Notes under the pieces: model-generated
Databases searched by the model: none
What the model was told of the DNA's origin: nothing
What the model saw: only the letters and a program-made list of their open reading frames with translations
Shown: positions 13,686-30,795 of the stretch, piece by piece
Layout: every line of letters begins with the position of its first letter
Position numbering within the stretch: position 1 is the stretch's first letter
Assembly (NCBI RefSeq): GCF_003324675.1
Contig: NZ_CP030918.1
Span: 1,860,001 to 1,892,000 of the forward strand
Length of the DNA: 32,000 bases
Direction: 5' to 3'
DNA from: Paracoccus suum
GTDB taxonomy: Bacteria > Pseudomonadota > Alphaproteobacteria > Rhodobacterales > Rhodobacteraceae
Made by a program: the position numbers and the translations under genes

Positions 13686-14579
13686 CTAGCTGCCGCCGGG
13701 GATGACGCGGAAACGGGCGCGGCGTTCGGCCAGGGTCGCGTTCTTGGGCAGGGGCTCGGGCTTCGGCGCGGCGAGGGGGTCGCTTGCGGGAAGGGTCGGC
13801 CAGCCGGGCGTCTCGCCAGCGGTGAGGGCGGGACGGGCGGCAGTGGGCGGCTCGCCAGCTGTTGAGCCCGCGGGCACGCGGCCCGGACGACGGCCGAGGC
13901 CGGGGCTGCGGCCGGGGTCCGGCGTGCGCCATGGCGGCGGTGCCGGCTCGCCAAAGCCCAGCGCGCCCGGCGCCGGGGCCAGCGTGCGCGCGCCCTCGAT
14001 CACCGGGGTCAGCACCTCGGCCGTCAGGTCAAAGCGGCGCGGCGGCCGGCCGATCGCGCTTTCCGCCACGATCACGCCGAGGGCCCGGGTGATATCTCCT
14101 AGGTCTGATCGCAGCGGCAGCAATAGCATGCGTGCGGGAAGGACGGGCCGGGCGTAGGCGCCCTCGGACAGCAGGGTCAACTCGACGATCTGGGGACCTG
14201 CAAACACGGTCTCGAGCACATCCGACAGCCGCCCGCGCGAGGCGGGATTGAAGAACGAGCAGAGCGGCATGCCCCGCACCTCCATGCCCATCAAGTCGAT
14301 CAGGTGCCGTCCGGCGAGACGAAAGCGCGCCGCGCCCGGCGCAATCCGCTCCAGAATGAAGGCGTGGCCCAGCGCGCCGCGTAGCCCGCGAGGGTCGATA
14401 TCGGCCCGGGTGGGGATGGCGCGGCCGCGCCGCAGCCCGTCCCAATAGCCCCGCAATTCGCCGAGGATTCGCCCCGGGTGGCGCGGATCGAAATCGGACA
14501 GCCGCACCAAGTCGGCCAGACCGGCGCAGGGTCCATCAAAATCTTTATCGCCGCCGCTGAACTGGTCGTCGTCTTCCAT
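13686..14579 (-). CDS. PAS_5 (DUF1457)-type PAS domain protein with a proline-rich C-terminal tail
   Basis: LRGYWDGLRRGRAIPTRADIDPRGL...FILERI is the signature of small alphaproteobacterial PAS_5 proteins. The start was placed at ATG 14579 (MEDDDQ); the track start at 14609 is a TTG. The last ~100 aa are Pro/Gly/Ala-rich. Confidence 0.7.
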   Translation of the reverse strand: MEDDDQFSGGDKDFDGPCAGLADLVRLSDFDPRHPGRILGELRGYWDGLRRGRAIPTRADIDPRGLRGALGHAFILERIAPGAARFRLAGRHLIDLMGMEVRGMPLCSFFNPASRGRLSDVLETVFAGPQIVELTLLSEGAYARPVLPARMLLLPLRSDLGDITRALGVIVAESAIGRPPRRFDLTAEVLTPVIEGARTLAPAPGALGFGEPAPPPWRTPDPGRSPGLGRRPGRVPAGSTAGEPPTAARPALTAGETPGWPTLPASDPLAAPKPEPLPKNATLAERRARFRVIPGGS

Positions 14580-14815
14580 CGCCGCCGTGCCGCCATCCGC
14601 CAAACGCAAGGCGTGCCGTCCGTCAGCCCCGCCTGCCTACCCTGCTAGATGCCCCCCGAGATTGCGCCGCGCCAGCCAAGTTTGCACGGCTTTTTTACGA
14701 CTTCTTAACGACATTTAGCATCGGGCGCGCCGGTACCTGCCCTTGACCGTCCCGGCCCCCCTCGTCCATTCAGGCGGCGCCAGAGGCCGCCTCGGCCGGG
14801 TGACAAGGGGACGGA

Positions 14816-15454
14816 ATGCGGCGCACGGGACTTTTGATCATTCTGTCTTCGCCCTCGGGGGCGGGCAAATCGACCTTGGCGCGCCGGTTGATGGCCTGGG
14901 ACCCTAACCTGCGGTTCTCTGTCTCGGCCACCACACGCGCTCCGCGGCCTGGCGAGGCCGAGGGCCGCGAATACTTCTTTCGCTCGCGCGAGCAGTTCGG
15001 CGCCCTGGTCGAAGGCGGCCAGATGCTCGAGCATGCCGAGGTTTTCGGCAACCTCTACGGCAGCCCGCGCGGCCCGATCGAGGCCGCGATGGCCGAAGGC
15101 CGCGACACCCTCTTTGACGTTGACTGGCAGGGCGGCCAGCAGATTCGCAACTCGCCCCTCGGACAGTCGGCGGTATCAGTGTTCGTCCTGCCGCCCGACC
15201 TGGCAGAGCTGAGGCGCCGTCTGCAGGCGCGCGGGCAGGACGCCGCCGAGGTTATCGACGCGCGCATGGACAAGAGCCGGGGCGAGATCAGCCACTGGGC
15301 GGAATACGACTATGTGCTGGTCAACGACGATCTGGACGCGACCGAGGCGCAATTGCGGTCCATCATCGCGGCCGAACGCCTGCGCCGCGAGCGGCAGGTG
15401 GACTTGGGCGATTTCGTGCGCCGGATGATGGACAAGGACAGGGAAACGCCATGA
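14816..15454 (+). CDS. gmk: Guanylate kinase
   Basis: P-loop [12 protein letters not shown], plus [13 protein letters not shown] and YFF motifs. Confidence 0.95.
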
Positions 15455-23700: not shown

Positions 23701-24115
23701 TTTCGAGGGTGATGTCCGCCTGTCGTTCCATCTGGCCCCGCCGGTCCTGCCGGGACGCGATGCAGACGGGCGGCCGAAAAAGCGGACTTTCGGGCCGTGG
23801 ATGCTGCCGGTGTTCCGCGCGCTCGCCAGCCTCAAGGGCCTGCGCGGCACGCCGCTCGACCCCTTTGGTTACCTCGGTGAGCGTCGGCGCGAGCGTCAGG
23901 CGATCAGCGATTACGAGGCGATGATGCGCGAGGTGTTGCCGGCCGTCACCCCGGCCACCGAGGGTATTGCGCGCGAACTGGCGCGCCTGCCGCTGGAGGT
24001 GAAGGGCTACGGCATGATCAAGGACGCCGCCGCCGAAAAGGCCTCCGACCGGGCCGCCGAACTGCTGGCCGCGTTCCGCACCGGCGGCACGCCCCTGCGT
24101 CACGCGGCTGAATAA
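20720..24115 (+). CDS. Indolepyruvate:ferredoxin oxidoreductase family protein (fused alpha/beta)
   Basis: The ORF 20576..24115 was trimmed to the ATG at 20720 (MSKHAEFSLADRFDL...). It has LNGTQALVRL, FVTGYRGSPLGG and a TPP-type GDGTYNHSG motif. There is also a ferredoxin-like Cys cluster (CEGCGDCSVQSNC) and a C-terminal IorB-like domain. The 1131-aa length is typical of the fused form. Confidence 0.9.
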   Translation: MSKHAEFSLADRFDLTKRSVLLNGTQALVRLMLMQAARDRAAGLDTAGFVTGYRGSPLGGVDLQMARQKKELAAANILFQPGLNEDLAATAIWGSQQAELRGEGRHQGVFALWYGKGPGVDRSGDVMRHGNMAGSSRYGGVIMAMGDDHTGESSTVLHQSDWAMVDAYMPVLSPAGVQEILDYGLYGYALSRFSGLWVGLKTMKDTVEATSVVDGDPMRLSFVTPADFPMPEGGLNIRLGDTPVIQEARMIDHKRFAAEAFSRANRMDKRMWGKPGAKLGFVAAGKNWLDLVHAFGLLGIDEAEAERLGITLYKVGQTWPLDMVSFHDWAEGLAVITVVEEKRKLIEVQVKEAIFDDRRGRVLGWKHDRTHEELFPTRYALDPVGIAEKIGGILIEEGRGTDALRAGLDRIREARRADNAPEIAARTPWFCSGCPHNTSTRLPEGSRAYAGIGCHYMVQWMGRETNGFTHMGGEGVNWVGEAPFSKRKHVFQNLGDGTYNHSGSLAIRAALAAGTNITYKILFNDAVAMTGGQPNEGGLTAAQIARELTAMGVDPVIVVHDEKEDVRADDFPGLILRPRSELMATQRELEEAPGVSAILYIQTCAAEKRRRRKKGAFPDPDTRIWINPEVCEGCGDCSVQSNCVSVVPLDTALGRKRAIDQSSCNKDYSCVKGFCPSFVSVHGGKPRKPAAAAFDLPDLPHPVMPAIHGTHNIVITGVGGTGVVTIGAVLAQAAQLDGKGAGMMEMAGLAQKGGAVHIHLRLAEKPSDISAIRVAVGEADCVIGGDLVVTAGARTLGLMTTGRTGAVVNDHEIITGEFTRDRDFRLPSGRLKLSLEARLKDRLAFFDASQLALKLMGDSIYSNMIVTGAAWQRGLIPLSEVAILRAIEMNGAQVAANQRAFQIGRWAVIHPADVAAVIAPPAADTPADPVADRAARLVGYQNEALARRFMALVDAAPPALRGDVAEGYYKLLAYKDEYEVARLHLQTAARVAESFEGDVRLSFHLAPPVLPGRDADGRPKKRTFGPWMLPVFRALASLKGLRGTPLDPFGYLGERRRERQAISDYEAMMREVLPAVTPATEGIARELARLPLEVKGYGMIKDAAAEKASDRAAELLAAFRTGGTPLRHAAE

Positions 24116-24244
24116 AGGGTCGCGGGGCGGTGGCGCTTGGAGCGGCGAAACTGTCACGCCAAGCCTTTCGCAAGCGCCCGCAAGGTCATTTCCTTTGCAC
24201 CGCCCGCGTCCTAGAGAGGGCGCGCATAGGCGGAGGGGTGTCTC

Positions 24245-25057
24245 ATGGCGGTCGGCGTTTTCGATTCGGGCCTTGGCGGGCTGACCGTGCTTTCGGCGAT
24301 CCGCGAGGCCATGCCGGAGCTGCCGCTGGTTTATCTGGGCGATAACGCCCACGCCCCCTATGGCTCCCGCCCGGCGCAGGAAATCTATGACCTGACCTGC
24401 GCCTCGGTCGAGCGGCTCTGGGCCGAAGGCTGCGATCTGGTCATTCTGGCCTGCAACACCGCCAGTGCCGTCGCCCTCAAGCGCATGCAGGAAACCTGGA
24501 TCCCGGACGACAAGCGCGTGCTTGGTGTGTTCGTCCCGCTGATCGAGGCGCTGACCGAGCGGCAATGGGGCGACAGCTCGCCCCCGCGGCAGGTCGCGGT
24601 GCAGCATGTGGCACTGTTCGCGACGCCTGCAACCGTCGCCAGCCGGGCCTTCCAGCGCGAACTCGCGTTCCGGGCGGTCGGCGTCGATGTCGAGGGCCAG
24701 CCCTGCGGCGGCGTTGTCGATGCCATCGAGGAAGGAGACGAGATCCTCGCCGAAGCCCTGGTCACCAGCCATGTCGAGGCGCTGAAGCGGCGCATGCCGC
24801 ATCCGCAGGCCGCGGTCCTCGGCTGCACCCATTTCCCGCTGATGGAGCGCGCCTTCCAGGCCGCGCTCGGGCCGGGGGTGCGGGTTCTGTCACAGCCAAG
24901 ACTGGTGGCGGCCAGCTTGAAGGACTATCTTGACCGCCGTCCCGAGTTCATCGGCGCCGGTAGCGAGACCCGCTTTCTGACGACCGGCGATCCGGCCCGG
25001 GTGTCGACCAAGGCGACCCAGTTCCTGCGCCAGCCCATCGCCTTCGAGGCGGCATAA
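24245..25057 (+). CDS. murI: Glutamate racemase
   Basis: [12 protein letters not shown], the catalytic-Cys motifs LACNTASA and LGCTHFPL, and a GGAGGGG Shine-Dalgarno sequence upstream. Confidence 0.93.
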
Positions 25058-25075
25058 GATATTTGAGGCCATGCC

Positions 25076-25528
25076 ATGAAATCGCTCAAGAAAAAGCGTC
25101 GTATCCAGGTTCTGATCGCGGCCGGCGCGGCGCTGCTGATCGCCGCCGTCCTGATCGGATACGGCTTTCGCGATGGCATCAACCTCTATCGCTCGCCCAG
25201 CCAGGTGGCCAGCGATCCGCCGCGCGAGGGCGAGGTGTTCCGCCTCGGCGGGTTGGTCGAAGAGGGCACCCTCAAGCGCGGACAGGGCCACGAGGTGAGC
25301 TTTACCGTCACCGACACCGCCAAGACCGTCCCGGTCCGCTTTGCCGGCATCCTGCCCGACCTCTTCGAGGAAGGTCAGGGCATGATCGGCACTGGCAGCA
25401 TGCAGGGCGGCGTGTTCGTCGCCAACGAGATCCTCGCCAAGCATGACGAGAGCTATGTCCCGCGTGAAGTGGTCGAATCGCTGAAGTCGCAGGGCGTCTA
25501 CGTCGACCCCAAAGCCCCCAACAGCTGA
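25076..25528 (+). CDS. ccmE: Cytochrome c maturation heme chaperone CcmE
   Basis: N-terminal anchor KKKRRIQVLIAAGAALLIAAVL, an OB-fold core, and the heme-binding LAKHDESYVP (HxxxY) motif. Confidence 0.95.
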   Translation: MKSLKKKRRIQVLIAAGAALLIAAVLIGYGFRDGINLYRSPSQVASDPPREGEVFRLGGLVEEGTLKRGQGHEVSFTVTDTAKTVPVRFAGILPDLFEEGQGMIGTGSMQGGVFVANEILAKHDESYVPREVVESLKSQGVYVDPKAPNS

Positions 25529-25554
25529 CCGCGCCCGGCGCAACGCACGTACCG

Positions 25555-25570
25555 CTAAGACCCCGTTAAC
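25555..25570 (+). promoter_or_regulatory. CtrA-box-like motif upstream of the endolysin gene
   Basis: CTAA-GACCCCG-TTAAC compared with the consensus TTAA-N7-TTAAC (one mismatch). It lies 47 nt upstream of the ATG at 25617. Confidence 0.4.
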
Positions 25571-25586
25571 CGTCACCCGGCACATT

Positions 25587-25608
25587 CCCTCGCCACGGGA
25601 TGCGAGGG
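25587..25608 (+). promoter_or_regulatory. Hairpin occluding the endolysin Shine-Dalgarno sequence
   Basis: CCCUCGC-CACGGGAU-GCGAGGG is a 7-bp stem. Its 3' arm contains the only Shine-Dalgarno-like element (GAGGG, 25604-25608), 8 nt upstream of the start codon. Confidence 0.4.
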
Positions 25609-25616
25609 CAGCAGGC

Positions 25617-26228
25617 ATGATGACGGTCGATCAGATCGCGGCAGAGATCGTCGCGCGTGAAGGGGGGTACGTGAACGACCCGGACGATCCGGGTGGGGCC
25701 ACGAAATACGGCGTGACACTCGCGACGCTGCAACGCCTCGGCTTCGACAAGACCGACGACCGCCGGATCGACGTTGCCGACGTCAAGGCGCTGACCCGCG
25801 AGGATGCCCGCCGCATTTTCGTAGAGCACTACTTTCGTCGCCCGCGGATCGCGGATCTGCCGGGGATCGTGCAGCCTTCGGTGTTCGACATGTATGTCAA
25901 CGCCGGCAGCAACGCGGTGAAGATCCTGCAGCGCTTGCTGGCCGGCATGGGCTTTGATGCGACGGATGATGGCCAGGTCGGCCCTCAGACCATCCGCGCC
26001 GCGCGCGAGGCGGCGCTGGCGGCGCCCCGGCACCTCGCTGACGCCTACGGCATCGCCCGGCGGAACTATTACTACAGCCTTGGCGATCTGCGCCCCGCCA
26101 GCCGCAAGTATTGCCGCCGGCACGATGGCGGCAAGGGCGGCTGGATCACTCGCGCCGAAAGCTTTGTGGCGCCGCGCTATCACCTGACATTGGCTCAGCA
26201 TAAGGCGAGGTGCGCGAAATGGGCATGA
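25617..26228 (+). CDS. GH108-family N-acetylmuramidase (holin-associated endolysin) with a PG_binding_3-like C-terminus
   Basis: The N-terminal catalytic signature VAREGGYVNDPDDPGGATKYGVT (EGGY motif) is present. There is no signal peptide or TM segment. The C-terminal half (GFDATDDGQVGPQTIRA) resembles peptidoglycan-binding repeats. The next gene overlaps its stop codon. Confidence 0.8.
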   Translation: MMTVDQIAAEIVAREGGYVNDPDDPGGATKYGVTLATLQRLGFDKTDDRRIDVADVKALTREDARRIFVEHYFRRPRIADLPGIVQPSVFDMYVNAGSNAVKILQRLLAGMGFDATDDGQVGPQTIRAAREAALAAPRHLADAYGIARRNYYYSLGDLRPASRKYCRRHDGGKGGWITRAESFVAPRYHLTLAQHKARCAKWA

Positions 26229-26872
26229 TGGACCGCCTGATTGGCGTCGGCGGCACGGTTACGGCGGTCGGCAACGCCGCCACCGGGATGGCCGAAGTGT
26301 TCCGCCAGAACACCACCCGCCGGATGGAGTTGGACGAGGAAGCCTATGCCCGCGCCATGGCCGAACATGGCACCGAGTTCGAGGCGGCCCCCCGCACTTG
26401 GTGGGACAGCCTTATGAACGGTCTGAACCGCCTGCCGCGCCCCATGCTGACGCTCGGCACCATTGGCCTTTTTGTCTACGCCATGGTCGAGCCGATCGGT
26501 TTTTCCACCCGGATGGAGGGGCTTGCGCTGGTGCCCGAGCCGCTGTGGTGGCTGATGGGTGCGATCGTCAGTTTCTATTTCGGCGCGCGCGAAGCGCATT
26601 ATTTCCGCGGCCGCGTCTGGCCGAGCGCCAAGGTGAAAAAGACCGTCGCCGCGTCCAGCCAAGGCGGCGCGGTGGTCGCAGCTGAGGTCGAGGCCGCATC
26701 GGGCGATCCCTTGGGCGAGGCGCTGGCGGCGGCCATGGCATCGGGCGACGCGGTAGTCGGCGGGCCCGGTGGTGCCGATGTAACGGGTGCCTCAGCCCCC
26801 GGCCGGGTGCGGGGGCCGGAGCCTTTCGCCGACAATCCCGCCTTGGCCGAATGGGCCGCGCAGCGGTCCTGA
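26219..26872 (+). CDS. 3TM-type (GTA-associated) holin family protein
   Basis: Its position overlaps the endolysin stop. The N-terminal segment is MDRLIGVGGTVTAVGNAATGMAEVFR, followed by NGLNRLPRP. Two clear hydrophobic helices follow (MLTLGTIGLFVYAMV and LWWLMGAIVSFYFGA). The start was chosen at ATG 26219 (GAGG 8 nt upstream); GTG 26210, ATG 26225 and ATG 26228 are alternatives. Confidence 0.7.
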   Translation: MGMMDRLIGVGGTVTAVGNAATGMAEVFRQNTTRRMELDEEAYARAMAEHGTEFEAAPRTWWDSLMNGLNRLPRPMLTLGTIGLFVYAMVEPIGFSTRMEGLALVPEPLWWLMGAIVSFYFGAREAHYFRGRVWPSAKVKKTVAASSQGGAVVAAEVEAASGDPLGEALAAAMASGDAVVGGPGGADVTGASAPGRVRGPEPFADNPALAEWAAQRS

Positions 26873-26895
26873 AACGACTTCGGGCGGGATAAAAA

Positions 26896-26920
26896 CGGGG
26901 GGCGCGCTGCCCCCTGTTTT
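26896..26920 (+). terminator. Intrinsic terminator after the holin gene
   Basis: CG-GGGGGC-GCGCU-GCCCCC-UG followed by UUUU. It is preceded by an A5 run and starts 24 nt after the holin stop. Confidence 0.65.
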
Positions 26921-27049
26921 GCCATGCATCCCGTCCCGCCGCCGAGCGCACGGCCAACTGCGCGGCACCCTGTCGCACGCCATCTTGCATAGCCCTGCCG
27001 CCCGCATGCCGCTAAAGTCCCGCCAAGTCAGTCGAGACCGGAGTGTGCC

Positions 27050-29020
27050 ATGATCGCCGAACTGGGCCATTTCGCCCTCATCCTCGCCTTTGCCGTATCG
27101 CTCTGGCAGATGAGCGTGCCGATGTGGGGCGCGGCGCGCGGCAACATGGCGGCGATGGAGAGCGCGCGGCCTGCCGCCGCGGCGCAGTTCGGGCTGATCG
27201 GCATCAGCTTCGCGGCGCTGACGGTCGCCTTCGTGACCTCCGACTTCTCGCTCAAGCTGGTCTACGAGAACAGCCATACCCTGAAGCCGATGCTCTACAA
27301 GGTCAGCGGCGTCTGGGGCAATCACGAGGGCAGCATGCTGCTGTGGGTGCTGATCCTGTCGCTGTTCGGCGCCGCGGCGGCAACCTTTGGCGATAACCTG
27401 CCGCCCGCGCTGCGCGCGCGGGTACTGGCGGTGCAGGGTTCGATCGGTGCGGCCTTCCTCGCGTTCATCCTGTTCACTTCGAACCCATTTTTGCGGATGG
27501 TGAACCCGCCCTTTGACGGGCGCGACCTGAACCCGCTGCTGCAGGACCCCGGCCTCGCGTTCCATCCGCCGTTCCTTTACCTCGGCTATGTCGGCCTCTC
27601 GATGTCCTTCAGCTTTGCCGTCGCCGCCCTGATCGAGGGCCGGGTCGACGCCGCTTGGGGGCGTTGGGTGCGTCCCTGGACGCTCGCCGCCTGGGTGTTC
27701 CTGACCATCGGCATCGCGCTGGGCTCGTGGTGGGCCTATTACGAGCTTGGCTGGGGCGGCTTCTGGTTCTGGGATCCGGTCGAGAATGCCAGCTTCATGC
27801 CGTGGTTGCTGGCCGGCGCGCTGGTCCATTCCGCGGTCGTGGTCGAAAAGCGCGAGGTGCTGAAAAGCTGGACCATCCTGCTTGCGATCCTCGCCTTCGC
27901 CTTCTCGCTGATCGGCACCTTTATCGTCCGCTCTGGCGTCATCACCTCGGTCCACAGCTTTGCCAGCGATCCGACCCGCGGCGTGGTGATCCTCGGCATC
28001 CTTGCGGTGTTTGTCGGCGGCGCACTGACGCTGTTCGCCGCCCGCGCCAGCACCCTCAGCGCGCGCGGCGTCTTTGCCCCCGTCTCGCGCGAGGGGGCGC
28101 TGCTGGTGAATAACGTGCTGCTCGCAGTGGCCGCGCTGGTGGTGTTCATCGGCACGGTCTGGCCACTGCTGGCCGAGATGTGGGGCCGCCGGCTGTCGGT
28201 CGGCGCGCCGTTTTTCGAGCAGGCCTTCACGCCGTTCATGGTGGCCATCGCCTTGATCCTGCCGATCGGCGCGATCCTGCCGTGGAAGCGCGGCAACCTC
28301 GCCCGCGCGCTACGGCCGCTACGTCCGGCACTGGCTCTGGCCTTTGCGGTGATGGCGCTGGTGTTTGCCGTGTCGAGCGGCCGCAGCGCGCTGGCGGTGA
28401 TTGGTGCCGGCCTCGGCTCGTGGCTGATCTTCGGCGCGCTGGCTGAGCTGGTCTACCGCACCAACAACGGCGGCTGGTCGCGCCTTACGCGCTTGCCGCG
28501 GGCCGACTGGGGCAAGGCACTGGCGCATGGCGGGCTGGGGGTGACCTTTATCGGCGTCAGCCTGATCATGGCCTGGCAGATCGAGGATATCCGCGTCGCC
28601 AAGGTGGGCGAGACGTTCGACGTCGGCACCTACCAGATAACGCTTGCCTCGGTCGAGGATCTGCCTGGCCCCAACTACACCGCGACGCGGGCCGAGATGC
28701 GGGTCAGCCGCAACGGTCGCGAGGTCGCGGTCATGCATCCCGAAAAGCGGTTCTATCCGGTGCAGGGGATGCCGACGACCGAGGCCGCGATCGACAACGG
28801 TATCTTCCGCGACCTGTACGTCGTGATCGGCGATCCGCAGGCACAGGGCGGCTGGGCGGTGCGCAGCTACGTAAAACCGTTCGCCAACTGGATCTGGGCG
28901 GGCGCGATCATCATGGCGCTCGGCGGCTGCCTCAGCCTGTCGGACCGGCGCAGCCGCGTCGCCGCCGGCGCGCGTCGGCAGCCCCATCCCGCCGCCCGTG
29001 GCGCGGTGCCCGCCGAATGA
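27050..29020 (+). CDS. ccmF: Cytochrome c heme lyase subunit CcmF
   Basis: A 656-aa polytopic membrane protein with the WWD motif WGGFWFWDPVENASFMPWL. A GGAG Shine-Dalgarno sequence lies upstream. Confidence 0.95.
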   Translation: MIAELGHFALILAFAVSLWQMSVPMWGAARGNMAAMESARPAAAAQFGLIGISFAALTVAFVTSDFSLKLVYENSHTLKPMLYKVSGVWGNHEGSMLLWVLILSLFGAAAATFGDNLPPALRARVLAVQGSIGAAFLAFILFTSNPFLRMVNPPFDGRDLNPLLQDPGLAFHPPFLYLGYVGLSMSFSFAVAALIEGRVDAAWGRWVRPWTLAAWVFLTIGIALGSWWAYYELGWGGFWFWDPVENASFMPWLLAGALVHSAVVVEKREVLKSWTILLAILAFAFSLIGTFIVRSGVITSVHSFASDPTRGVVILGILAVFVGGALTLFAARASTLSARGVFAPVSREGALLVNNVLLAVAALVVFIGTVWPLLAEMWGRRLSVGAPFFEQAFTPFMVAIALILPIGAILPWKRGNLARALRPLRPALALAFAVMALVFAVSSGRSALAVIGAGLGSWLIFGALAELVYRTNNGGWSRLTRLPRADWGKALAHGGLGVTFIGVSLIMAWQIEDIRVAKVGETFDVGTYQITLASVEDLPGPNYTATRAEMRVSRNGREVAVMHPEKRFYPVQGMPTTEAAIDNGIFRDLYVVIGDPQAQGGWAVRSYVKPFANWIWAGAIIMALGGCLSLSDRRSRVAAGARRQPHPAARGAVPAE

Positions 29021-29481
29021 GGCGTCTGGCTGCCGCAGCGCTGTTTGCGCTCACGCTCGCCTCGCCGGTGCTGGCGATCCAGCCCGACGAGGTGCTGGCC
29101 GATCCGGCGATGGAGGCCCGCGCCCGCGAGATCAGCCGGGTGCTGCGCTGCCCGGTCTGCCAGGGCGAGAACATCGACGACAGCAATGCCGAGATCAGCC
29201 GGGACCTGCGCCTCTATGTGCGCGAGCTGCTGGTCGCGGGCGACAGCGACAGCCAGGTGATTGACGCGGTGACCGACCGCTACGGCGAATATGTGCTGTT
29301 CGAGCCGCGGCGCACGGGCGGCAATCTGATCCTGTGGCTGGCCGGCCCCGTGATGGCGCTGCTGGGGCTCGGCCTGGCCTTTGCCTATGCGCGCCGGCGC
29401 AAGGCCGCCCCGGTCACGGCCCCCCTGAGCGCCGACGAGCAATCGCGGCTGGCGCGGATCATGGAAGACGAGGCTCCGTAG
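29017..29481 (+). CDS. ccmH: Cytochrome c-type biogenesis protein CcmH (CycL)
   Basis: A signal sequence plus the LRCPVCQGENIDDSNA thiol-redox motif, and a C-terminal TM segment. There is an ATGA overlap with ccmF. Confidence 0.92.
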   Translation: MRRLAAAALFALTLASPVLAIQPDEVLADPAMEARAREISRVLRCPVCQGENIDDSNAEISRDLRLYVRELLVAGDSDSQVIDAVTDRYGEYVLFEPRRTGGNLILWLAGPVMALLGLGLAFAYARRRKAAPVTAPLSADEQSRLARIMEDEAP

Positions 29482-29598
29482 GGCTGATCTAGGGTACTGG
29501 CGGCCGCACCTCGCTGTGGTGAGAATAGGCGCGCCTGCCGGAACCCCGGCTGCGACACGGCTGGTTGCTCCTACGCGAACTCCCTTAATTTGGGCGGC

Positions 29599-30795
29599 TC
29601 AGGTCCAATCCCGCAGGGACAGGTAGTCCATCACCTCACCGGCCCGGCGCGCGGGATCGTGGGCAGGCCGCACCAGCAGGGCACCCGCCGCCGCCATCAC
29701 CGAAAGGCTGGCGCTGTCCTGATTGTCGTCGGGCGTAATCACCGGCAGGCCGCGATCCCCGGCCGCGCCTTCGTTCAGCCGCGCGCGCAGGTAGTGCTGG
29801 CGCGGCCCTTCGGGGGGCAGGTCGCAGCCGAGCGTCGCATGGTGCAGGCGTTGGGTACCGGGCAGGCCCTGCATGCGCTCGATCAGCGGGCGCAGGAACA
29901 GCAGGGCGCTGACCATGGCCGAGATCGGGTTGCCCGGCAGGCCGAGCATCAACGCATTGCCGAGACGGCCGACGACCAGCGGCTTGCCAGGGCGCATCGC
30001 CAGTTTCCAGAAGGCGCGCTCCATGCCCATCGCCTCGGTCACGGGCGCGATCAGGTCGTGATCGCCGACCGAGGCGCCGCCGATGGTGACGATGATGTCG
30101 GCGTCCGCCGCCGCCTCAAGCCCCGCGCGCAAGCTCTCGGCAGTGTCGCGCGTGATCGGCAGGATGCGGGGCAGGGCGCCCGCCGCCGCCGCGATGGCGG
30201 CGATGGCAATGTCGTTGCTGTTGATGATCTGGCCGGCACCGGGGTTGGTGCCGGGGGGTACCAGCTCGTCCCCGCCGGGCAGGATCGCGACCACCGGGCG
30301 GCGGGCGACCGTGACGCGCGGCACGTTCATCGCCGCGATCAGCGCCAGTTCCGCCGGACCCAACCGGCGGCCGGCGTCGATCACGCTGCCTTCACTGAAA
30401 TCATTGCCGCGCGGGCGGATGTTGCTGCCGCCCGAGGCGTCGGTCACGGCGATCCGCTCGCCCTCGCGCGTGACGTTTTCCTGCATGACCACGCGGTCGC
30501 ATCCGTCGGGGACCGGCGCGCCTGTGAAGATCCGAACTGCCTGGCCGGGGGCGATCTCGCCATCCCATTCGCGCCCGGCGGCGGCCTCGCCGACCACTGT
30601 CAGCGGGCCGGGCAGGTCGGCGCTACGCAGGGCATAGCCGTCCATCGAGGCTGCGTCGAACGGCGGCTGAGTCAGGCGCGCCGCCACGGGGGCCAGCAGA
30701 ACGCGGCCGTTTGCCTCGGCTAGCAGAACCTCCTCTGGGATCGGGGCCGGGGCGAGGGCGAGGGTGCGAGCGAGCGCTTCGTCGACGGGGATCAT
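29599..30795 (-). CDS. moeA: Molybdopterin molybdotransferase MoeA
   Basis: The ORF 29599..31341 was trimmed to the ATG at 30795 ([12 protein letters not shown]...). Motifs [24 protein letters not shown] and GLPGNPISA are present. The ATG overlaps the moaC stop (ATGA). Confidence 0.92.

Follow-up and report, generated by a model that had tools for sequence, protein, structure and literature searches.

What is a pair of cell-lysis genes doing between the genes of a heme chaperone and a heme lyase, and how is transcription reading into it from upstream kept harmless? This is the question raised by a 32-kb stretch of the Paracoccus suum chromosome with a G+C content of 68% (the window hereafter), in which six genes of the + strand follow each other in the order murI-like, ccmE, muramidase, holin, ccmF and ccmH. 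With regard to its first part, the muramidase-holin module is very likely the P. suum orthologue of rcc00555-rcc00556, the cassette that releases the gene transfer agent (GTA) of Rhodobacter capsulatus (RcGTA), in its ancestral Rhodobacterales position. Both the pair and its location between ccmE and ccmF are already published, and hence they are no discovery. As to the second part, an earlier reading made from the letters alone (the sequence-only reading) had left it as an open question, and a fair one. No treatment of it was found in the literature searched, and features of the spacer ahead of the muramidase gene now suggest an answer, namely a hairpin over the ribosome-binding site of that gene. 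A conserved hairpin of this kind, sequestering the Shine-Dalgarno sequence, was not found described in the literature searched. Taken as a whole, a GTA lysis cassette plus a hairpin lock on read-through is the best explanation of the locus and, in our judgement, a likely one. The genes concerned are the following.

24245..25057, + strand: murI-like glutamate racemase gene (Pfam Asp_Glu_race, 1.3e-12), 18 nucleotides (nt) ahead of ccmE
25076..25528, + strand: ccmE (cycJ), heme chaperone (Pfam CcmE, 2.1e-30), conserved as the gene upstream of the lysis pair
25617..26228, + strand: endolysin, a predicted cytoplasmic GH108 N-acetylmuramidase of 203 residues with a PG_binding_3 domain (Pfam, NCBIfam, PHROG and solved structures)
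26219..26872, + strand: holin of the GTA_holin_3TM family (PF11351), 217 residues, Shine-Dalgarno GAGG at 26207-26210; the public start is at 26228 (214 residues)
27050..29020, + strand: ccmF, heme lyase gene (Pfam CcmF_C, 7.4e-119; Cytochrom_C_asm, 3.4e-52), downstream flank
29017..29481, + strand: ccmH, heme lyase gene (Pfam CcmH, 2.3e-47), downstream flank

The sequence-only reading had proposed that a two-gene module splits ccmE from ccmF-ccmH, and this arrangement holds, with the open reading frames (ORFs) where they were first placed and the families assigned by Pfam. The orthology of the module was addressed by synteny, in a sample of 80 genomes picked by ccmE, independently of the insert, on each of which the six window proteins were mapped. 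The order ccmE, muramidase, holin was found at about 70 of the 80 sampled loci and in many genera, so that the comparison of ccmE-ccmF spacing across Rhodobacterales placed the pair at the same site in most genomes, with intact reading frames and a muramidase identity that ranges from 51 to 82% across the ccmE-linked loci. The other flank is less constant: ccmF-ccmH lies downstream of the holin gene at about 45 of the 80, including those of Paracoccus, Roseovarius and Phaeovulum, and ccmF is located elsewhere at loci of the Rhodobacter, Cereibacter, Thioclava and Gemmobacter type. A few loci depart from the common order. The pair is missing from L036 and L050, only a holin fragment is retained in L072, about 1.1 kb of extra sequence separates ccmE from the muramidase gene in L017 (6459-7621), and ccmF follows ccmE after some 200 nt, with no lysis pair, in L080 (6441-6649), a low-G+C member of Paracoccaceae (G+C 0.48).

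This distribution reproduces what was known from work centred on R. capsulatus, where rcc00555 and rcc00556 are required for lysis and for the release of RcGTA (Hynes et al. 2016, PMC5026251). The same study described the RcGTA lysis locus as flanked by cycJ, that is, ccmE, in 19 of 21 Rhodobacterales genomes and by the heme lyase gene in 12 of the 21; in two Ketogulonicigenium genomes without the pair the flanking genes were adjacent, and the authors concluded that the locus dates back to the last common ancestor of the order (PMC5026251). Moreover, all 21 genomes, that of P. denitrificans included, have the GTA structural cluster (PMC5026251). The sequence-only reading had cited rcc00555/rcc00556 as release genes unlinked to that cluster, which agrees with the published record (PMC5026251, PMC3423380). 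The label 'GTA-type' is thus given to the P. suum module because of its orthologous position and not because of its protein domains, and the cassette is a further example of a GTA release locus that was already published and is inherited vertically.

Both proteins belong to the families that such a cassette calls for, as the sequence-only reading had anticipated, and the searches for Glyco_hydro_108, PG_binding_3 and GTA_holin_3TM all gave significant matches. The muramidase matches Glyco_hydro_108 (PF05838; 2.2e-26, 92.7 bits) and PG_binding_3 (PF09374; 2.1e-18, 66.7 bits) in Pfam, the NCBIfam model NF040573 'holin-associated N-acetylmuramidase' over positions 1-200 of 200 (339.4 bits for a cut-off of 240) and the endolysin family PHROG 315 (6.2e-33); its relatives of solved structure, as found by sequence, are 7dnp, 2nr7, 2ikb and 6v40, and a look-up of its exact sequence gave no record. 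It contains the motif EGGYVNDPDDPGGATKYG, and its residues 13-32, AREGGYVNDPDDPGGATKYG, are aligned to EGGYVDHPKDPGGAT of 7dnp; the N-terminal EGGY motif of GH108 muramidases presumably holds the catalytic Glu. No hydrophobic segment was detected in this protein, with a top 19-residue Kyte-Doolittle mean of 0.74 and a polar N-terminus, MMTVDQIAAEIVAREGG. The description as a cytoplasmic GH108-type muramidase was consequently upheld, by family scores above the curated cut-offs and by hydropathy, and a muramidase predicted to have neither signal peptide nor membrane anchor would depend for its export on the holin.

The holin covers positions 2-123 of the 123 of PF11351 (5.1e-29, 101.7 bits for a gathering threshold of 24.8), a domain common to 4837 relatives, and is identical (100%, full length) to P. 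suum DRW48_09185. No matching model was found for it in PHROGs or NCBIfam, nor any solved structure similar by sequence; the name 'Methionine synthase I' that one source gives to its protein cluster is apparently a mislabel. Its hydropathy profile shows two clear segments, residues 76-95 (1.53) and 101-123 (1.38), and a weak third one at 7-25 (1.18) that is rich in Gly, Thr and Ala. The proposal that the second gene encodes a GTA_holin_3TM membrane protein overlapping the muramidase stop was therefore sound, with a match to the whole Pfam model and an overlap of 10 nt. The overlap itself follows from the choice of start: at essentially all the related loci listed, an ATGGG start precedes the final base of the muramidase stop codon by 10 nt, and in 38 loci this conserved ATGGG contains the sole ATG near the junction. 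In the window the conserved start corresponds to the ATG at 26219 (MGMMDRL...), with GAGG 8 nt upstream, and neither to the GTG at 26210 nor to the annotated start at 26228. Given this start, the 10-nt overlap suggests that translation of the holin is probably coupled to that of the muramidase gene. A conserved dual-start holin was also considered and rejected, since an alignment of 14 holins revealed that the second and third Met codons are Paracoccus-specific.

The C-terminal part of the holin offers some further observations. All 14 aligned holins, a viral one among them, end in DN(A/P)AL..W, preceded by a linker whose length varies widely; in the window this motif corresponds to residues 206-212 (26834-26854), where N206 and L209 are invariant and W212 nearly so, and it may represent a partner-binding tag. 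The P. suum tail carries in addition a stretch of about 40 residues rich in Ala and Gly (residues ~148-195, window ~26660-26800) that is missing from most relatives, and the resulting 217 residues compare with 133-219 elsewhere, mostly 155-190.

If the module is a GTA release cassette, signs of GTA control could be sought in the 88-nt spacer between ccmE and the muramidase gene, where three features occur.

25539..25549, + strand: motif CGCAACGCACG, conserved in Paracoccus spacers with consensus CGCAACGCGCG, immediately ahead of the CtrA box
25555-25570, + strand: CtrA-box-like CTAAGACCCCGTTAAC, TTAA-N7-TTAAC with one mismatch
25587..25608, + strand: predicted hairpin of 7 bp, with 5' arm CCCTCGC at 25587-25593 and 3' arm GCGAGGG at 25602-25608

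Matches to the CtrA box with at most one mismatch occur at two places in the 32 kb, giving three listed hits (25555-25570 is also a hit on the minus strand) against 0.15 expected. The other place, TTTACGACTTCTTAAC at 14694-14709 (one mismatch), falls between a divergent gene for a PAS_5-domain protein (13686..14609, minus strand) and gmk (14816..15454). Across 69 homologous spacers, TTAAC was found in 55, compared with 0.2 per kb over the loci, and the full box is exact in 18 and has one mismatch in 8; Paracoccus spacers read GTTAAC-N5-GTTAACC, that is, TTAA-N7-TTAAC, and the other genera retain a half-site. TTAAC lies mostly 47-50 nt from the ATG of the muramidase gene, and the box ends 2-16 nt ahead of the 5' arm of the hairpin. 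In this line, putative CtrA half-sites have been reported in the lysis promoter of R. capsulatus (Sherlock and Fogg 2022, PMC9638019), and work in the same species showed that GafA binds the promoter of the lysis cassette and that induction of the endolysin needs CtrA (Fogg 2019, PMC6363796). The CGCAACGCACG/CGCAACGCGCG motif, examples of which are found in the spacers of L001, L016, L030, L039, L043, L047, L048 and L069, may be an activator site, either for GafA or for another factor. Other searches gave nothing: no sigma-70 promoter was found in a scan of 24000-29800, no match in the spacer with Rfam at a permissive threshold, and no terminator-like site after ccmE, just as the sequence-only reading had noted, so that read-through remained to be accounted for.

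The same pair is not confined to cellular chromosomes. A tblastn search with the holin against 50,697 GenBank phage records gave no match, and the idea that this holin is absent from phages was nevertheless rejected once a profile scan of IMG/VR revealed relatives in 97 viral contigs. In nearly all of these a GH108 muramidase gene lies directly upstream of the holin gene, and none of them carries ccmE or ccmF. One set is Mu-like: L097 and its relatives encode transposase A and B, have a late-activator gene immediately upstream of the muramidase gene, and continue after the pair with the genes for the small and large terminase subunits and then the portal (members include L097 (5354-6528), L098-L110, L114, L120-L157 and others). 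In L081 (1-8609), on the other hand, the pair ends a siphovirus tail module of tape measure, distal tail, DUF6950 and two tail-fibre proteins, one with a GDSL lipase domain, and shows the same 10-nt overlap. In several contigs of 73-82 kb the pair occurs twice, at a distance of about 40 kb (L108 and L130, both from IMGVR_UViG_3300002490_000110), which could reflect two Mu-like prophages in tandem or a concatemer produced by assembly.

The viral relatives raise the alternative that the P. suum module is a phage-derived lysis cassette without any GTA role here, either a fixed Mu-like or siphovirus remnant or a device for some other programmed lysis, releasing DNA, vesicles or public goods. The same overlapping GH108 and GTA_holin_3TM pair in the 97 IMG/VR contigs, L097 and L081 for instance, speaks for this possibility, and it weighs against our interpretation that the family is not exclusive to GTAs, so that membership in it is in itself no proof of a GTA role. 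We nevertheless hold such an origin to be improbable, since the pair occupies one fixed position by ccmE with intact frames in most of the sampled genomes, no phage gene was found among the ORFs scanned in the window, nor any tRNA or repeat boundary, the R. capsulatus orthologue is needed for RcGTA release and the genomes of the published comparison carry the GTA cluster without exception (PMC5026251), and the spacer carries a CtrA box, as late GTA genes would be expected to. A different proposal would see in the pair a non-lytic device for wall remodelling or protein secretion that opens the peptidoglycan locally, in the manner of the TtsA-type muramidases of typhoid toxin. In its favour, the muramidase matches GH108/PG_binding_3 structures that include 6v3z and 6v40 (depositor names 'Sen1395' and 'PG_binding_3 domain-containing protein'), which we take to be secretion muramidases of the TtsA class, and the pair sits amid genes of envelope and periplasm biogenesis such as murI and ccm. 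This proposal seems to us very improbable, however, because the muramidase passes a holin-associated equivalog model and has a full-length GTA_holin_3TM protein as its partner, the orthologous pair lyses R. capsulatus cells, and nothing cargo-like occurs in the window. We therefore return to the module as a GTA release cassette, and to how its expression may be restrained.

The 3' arm of the spacer hairpin includes the Shine-Dalgarno sequence of the muramidase gene (GAGG, 25604-25607), 9 nt before the ATG. Across loci, the 3' arm is the G-rich Shine-Dalgarno sequence in most lineages and ends 1-6 nt ahead of the ATG, and the sequences of the arms vary by genus with their complementarity kept, as in CATTTCCCC/GGGGAAATG, GATTTCCCCG/CGGGGAAATC, CCAGCC.../...GGCTGG and GCCTGTCGCC/GGGGATAGGC. 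Clustering of the 36 nt ahead of the ATG at 70% identity gave 29 groups, most of them with a hairpin; L023 and L058 are the exceptions. Over 69-70 related loci, the median folding energy of the region from -45 to +3 was -19.2 kcal/mol for the muramidase gene, in comparison with -13.3 for murI, -11.8 for ccmE, -13.1 for ccmF, -12.1 for holin and -17.7 for ccmH. The start regions have a G+C content of 0.57-0.62 for all these genes except ccmH (0.74), whose low folding energy is explained by its far more G+C-rich start region. In a similar way, 7 or more of the 10 bases at -14 to -5 are paired at 80% of the muramidase starts, versus 17-49% of the neighbour-gene controls, and the muramidase start region is more stable than its dinucleotide shuffles, with a median z of -2.0. 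At 54 of 69 loci, RNA of the sense strand folds more stably than that of the antisense strand (Wilcoxon p = 1.7e-6; this and the other p-values from these loci ignore the relatedness of the genomes and overstate their independence, which tells against taking them at face value), and 104 of 938 predicted pairs are G-U. Both the strand asymmetry and the G-U pairs point to an RNA structure rather than to a DNA palindrome.

The expected consequence for translation was approached by computing the cost of opening positions -15 to +3 in a read-through RNA spanning -100 to +40. The median was 15.3 kcal/mol for the muramidase gene and 8.5 for murI, 6.9 for ccmE, 9.2 for holin, 9.3 for ccmF and 11.2 for ccmH (Mann-Whitney p from 1e-21 to 5e-7 for muramidase versus its neighbours), and it fell to 5.1 kcal/mol for the muramidase gene when the RNA had a leader of only 16 nt. 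The distinct versions of the cassette in viral contigs show a dependence on context. For those whose muramidase start touches or overlaps the preceding gene (n=13), the median opening cost is 7.0 kcal/mol, as in L081, whose muramidase start overlaps the upstream stop, lacks a hairpin and costs 8.2 kcal/mol to open, whereas in the cassettes with a spacer (n=40) it reaches 14.1 kcal/mol (p = 2e-5 versus the abutting group). Mu-like phages make up most of the group with a spacer, and their spacer of 41-47 nt after the late-activator gene holds the hairpin CCCTTTATCCTGACGGGAAAGGGGG. Although the Mu-like group amounts to roughly one lineage, these results suggest that the lock appears where the cassette heads a unit that follows another of different timing.

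How these parts could work together is best seen by analogy with the lysozyme gene e of phage T4, whose early read-through transcripts are locked by a hairpin, while the transcripts from its late promoter do not contain the 5' strand (PMC3014915). In P. suum, read-through transcripts from murI-ccmE would have the Shine-Dalgarno sequence and start region of the muramidase gene buried in the hairpin and would be poorly translated; transcription of the untranslated muramidase message might, as pure speculation, even be terminated by Rho ahead of the holin gene. In the few cells that produce GTA particles, to judge from R. capsulatus, phosphorylated CtrA and GafA would switch on a promoter inside the 88-nt spacer. 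As the CtrA box lies so close to the 5' arm, a promoter using the box near -35 should start transcription inside or after the arm, and would thus yield an unlocked mRNA with a short leader. The muramidase, lacking an export signal, would then build up in the cytoplasm, and the holin, probably translationally coupled, would collect in the inner membrane and eventually open it, so that the muramidase would reach the wall, the cell would lyse and the particles would be released. That the hairpin lowers the translation of read-through RNA seems to us, from the folding models, an evenly balanced proposition. The full arrangement with a promoter inside the hairpin, as in gene e, is a more tentative idea that we would rather doubt than assert. 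Equally speculative, and somewhat short of an even chance, is the wider notion of a Rhodobacterales lock in the style of T4 gene e that is shared with Mu-like phages and missing in tail-operon fusions, and which would be an old, context-dependent companion of the module.

Several observations weigh against this mechanism. The hairpin of the window itself is weak (z = -1.1, with 30 of 200 shuffles folding as well), and its opening cost of 12.6 kcal/mol is at the low end of the family range. RNAalifold found zero consensus pairs in four MAFFT alignments (68 sequences and three subsets), and hence no formal covariation, a result that can be attributed to the shift of the pairing register between lineages. 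The ribosome-binding region of the holin gene itself is not unusually closed. In addition, the CtrA site at the gafA promoter of R. capsulatus coincides with the transcription start site (PMC6363796), and a start at the CtrA site as in gafA would put the hairpin into every transcript of the cassette, where it may act as a constitutive damper or as the target of an activator. Some of these observations lend themselves to another interpretation, in which the spacer hairpin is not a lock at all and represents instead a 3' stabiliser or weak terminator of the murI-ccmE transcript, or a by-product of a G+C-rich promoter with a G-run facing a C-run. The window hairpin being no better than shuffles and the missing consensus structure agree with this interpretation, and a 3' hairpin after ccmE could plausibly protect the ccmE mRNA, the more so as a ccmE without a terminator leaves room for an atypical one. 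We regard it as unlikely, though less so than the two alternatives considered above. The hairpin occupies the end of the spacer away from ccmE, past the CtrA box and next to the muramidase ATG rather than to the ccmE stop; it has no T-run, and its 3' arm is the Shine-Dalgarno sequence in most lineages; it is far stronger than at neighbour genes of similar G+C content, strand-specific and with G-U pairs; and Mu-like phages, which lack ccmE, carry a similar hairpin ahead of the muramidase gene, whereas none is seen in cassettes where this gene directly adjoins the one before it. The read-through lock thus remains the interpretation that we prefer for the hairpin.

The other end of the module shows a further structure.

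26897-26914, both strands: terminator-like G+C hairpin with an A-run at 26891-26895 and a T-run at 26917-26920 (-31.1 kcal/mol, z = -2.7)

It begins 25 nt past the holin stop and is followed by ccmF, and with its runs on both sides it could work in both directions. The sequence-only reading had given the module a terminator of its own, and the scan and the folding score bear this out for the window. A comparably strong hairpin after the holin gene occurs in only a minority of the related loci. Unlike the window, many loci of Paracoccus and its relatives have a holin-ccmF gap of just 59-100 nt and no convincing terminator (L005, L006, L010, L015, L029, L055, L057, L058, L060 and L078), and there ccmF-ccmH may be transcribed through the lysis genes. 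If ccmF-ccmH depend on such transcription, translational silencing of the cassette would matter more.

The remaining part of the window offers an ordinary panorama. Besides the genes already described, Pfam recognised lgt, an Lrp-type regulator, a thioredoxin-reductase-like protein, ATP sulfurylase/APS kinase, Hsp20, purE, purK, a NUDIX protein, a peptidase M3, the PAS_5 protein, gmk, a histidine kinase, purL, a LysR regulator, an indolepyruvate-oxidoreductase-like protein, moeA, moaC and trpC, and the lysis pair is thus embedded in a housekeeping stretch of the P. suum chromosome. No phage genes were found among the ORFs scanned with Pfam, a set of likely genes that left out small ORFs and included five without a family, and neither an RcGTA-like head-tail cluster, which in relatives is flanked by pabC and cysE, nor gafA (rcc01865-1866) was seen among them in the 32 kb. 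The searches of the window for tRNAs and for bounding repeats also gave none. The absence of phage genes and repeat boundaries, already remarked in the sequence-only reading, was consequently borne out, and the module as a prophage end was rejected, with scanned ORFs that are either housekeeping or without a Pfam family.

Should the lock prove real, GTAs would be controlled at a post-transcriptional level as well, and this could help to explain how lysis is confined to a few cells and kept separate from the constant expression of the ccm genes. In this regard, R. capsulatus, Cereibacter sphaeroides and P. denitrificans are genetically tractable, and relatives of them are present in our sample (L048 and L062 included).

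Among known systems, the closest to the P. suum module is the RcGTA cassette rcc00555-rcc00556, with which it shares both protein families, the gene order, cycJ/ccmE upstream and the heme lyase gene downstream, as well as the lack of linkage to the head-tail cluster and a CtrA half-site or box in the promoter region. It differs in belonging to another genus and in being known here from its sequence alone, in a holin tail about 40 residues longer, in a near-complete CtrA box instead of only a half-site, and in the strong terminator after the holin gene. The cassettes of Mu-like and siphovirus-like alphaproteobacterial phages or prophages in IMG/VR share the overlapping muramidase and holin families, with identities of 52-65% and 32-54%, and those of the Mu-like phages also share a predicted hairpin sequestering the ribosome-binding site of the muramidase gene; in contrast, they are flanked by late-activator, terminase, portal or tail genes, and their spacer has no TTAAC. 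A more distant likeness exists with the lysis cassettes of the lambda type, in which a cytoplasmic endolysin also depends on a holin and the genes are adjacent and co-oriented, but in the window the endolysin gene precedes that of the holin, no spanin gene is present (the terminator follows directly after the holin gene) and there is no conserved dual start. Finally, the resemblance to T4 gene e concerns regulation. In both cases an endolysin gene lies behind a differently timed unit, its Shine-Dalgarno sequence is buried by a hairpin in long transcripts (as predicted here), and a dedicated promoter is so close that its own transcripts should miss the 5' arm (as we infer here). There is no sequence relationship between the two, the enzyme being a GH108 protein and not a T4 lysozyme, the promoter presumably of the CtrA/GafA and not of the T4 late type, and the upstream unit a housekeeping operon of the host.

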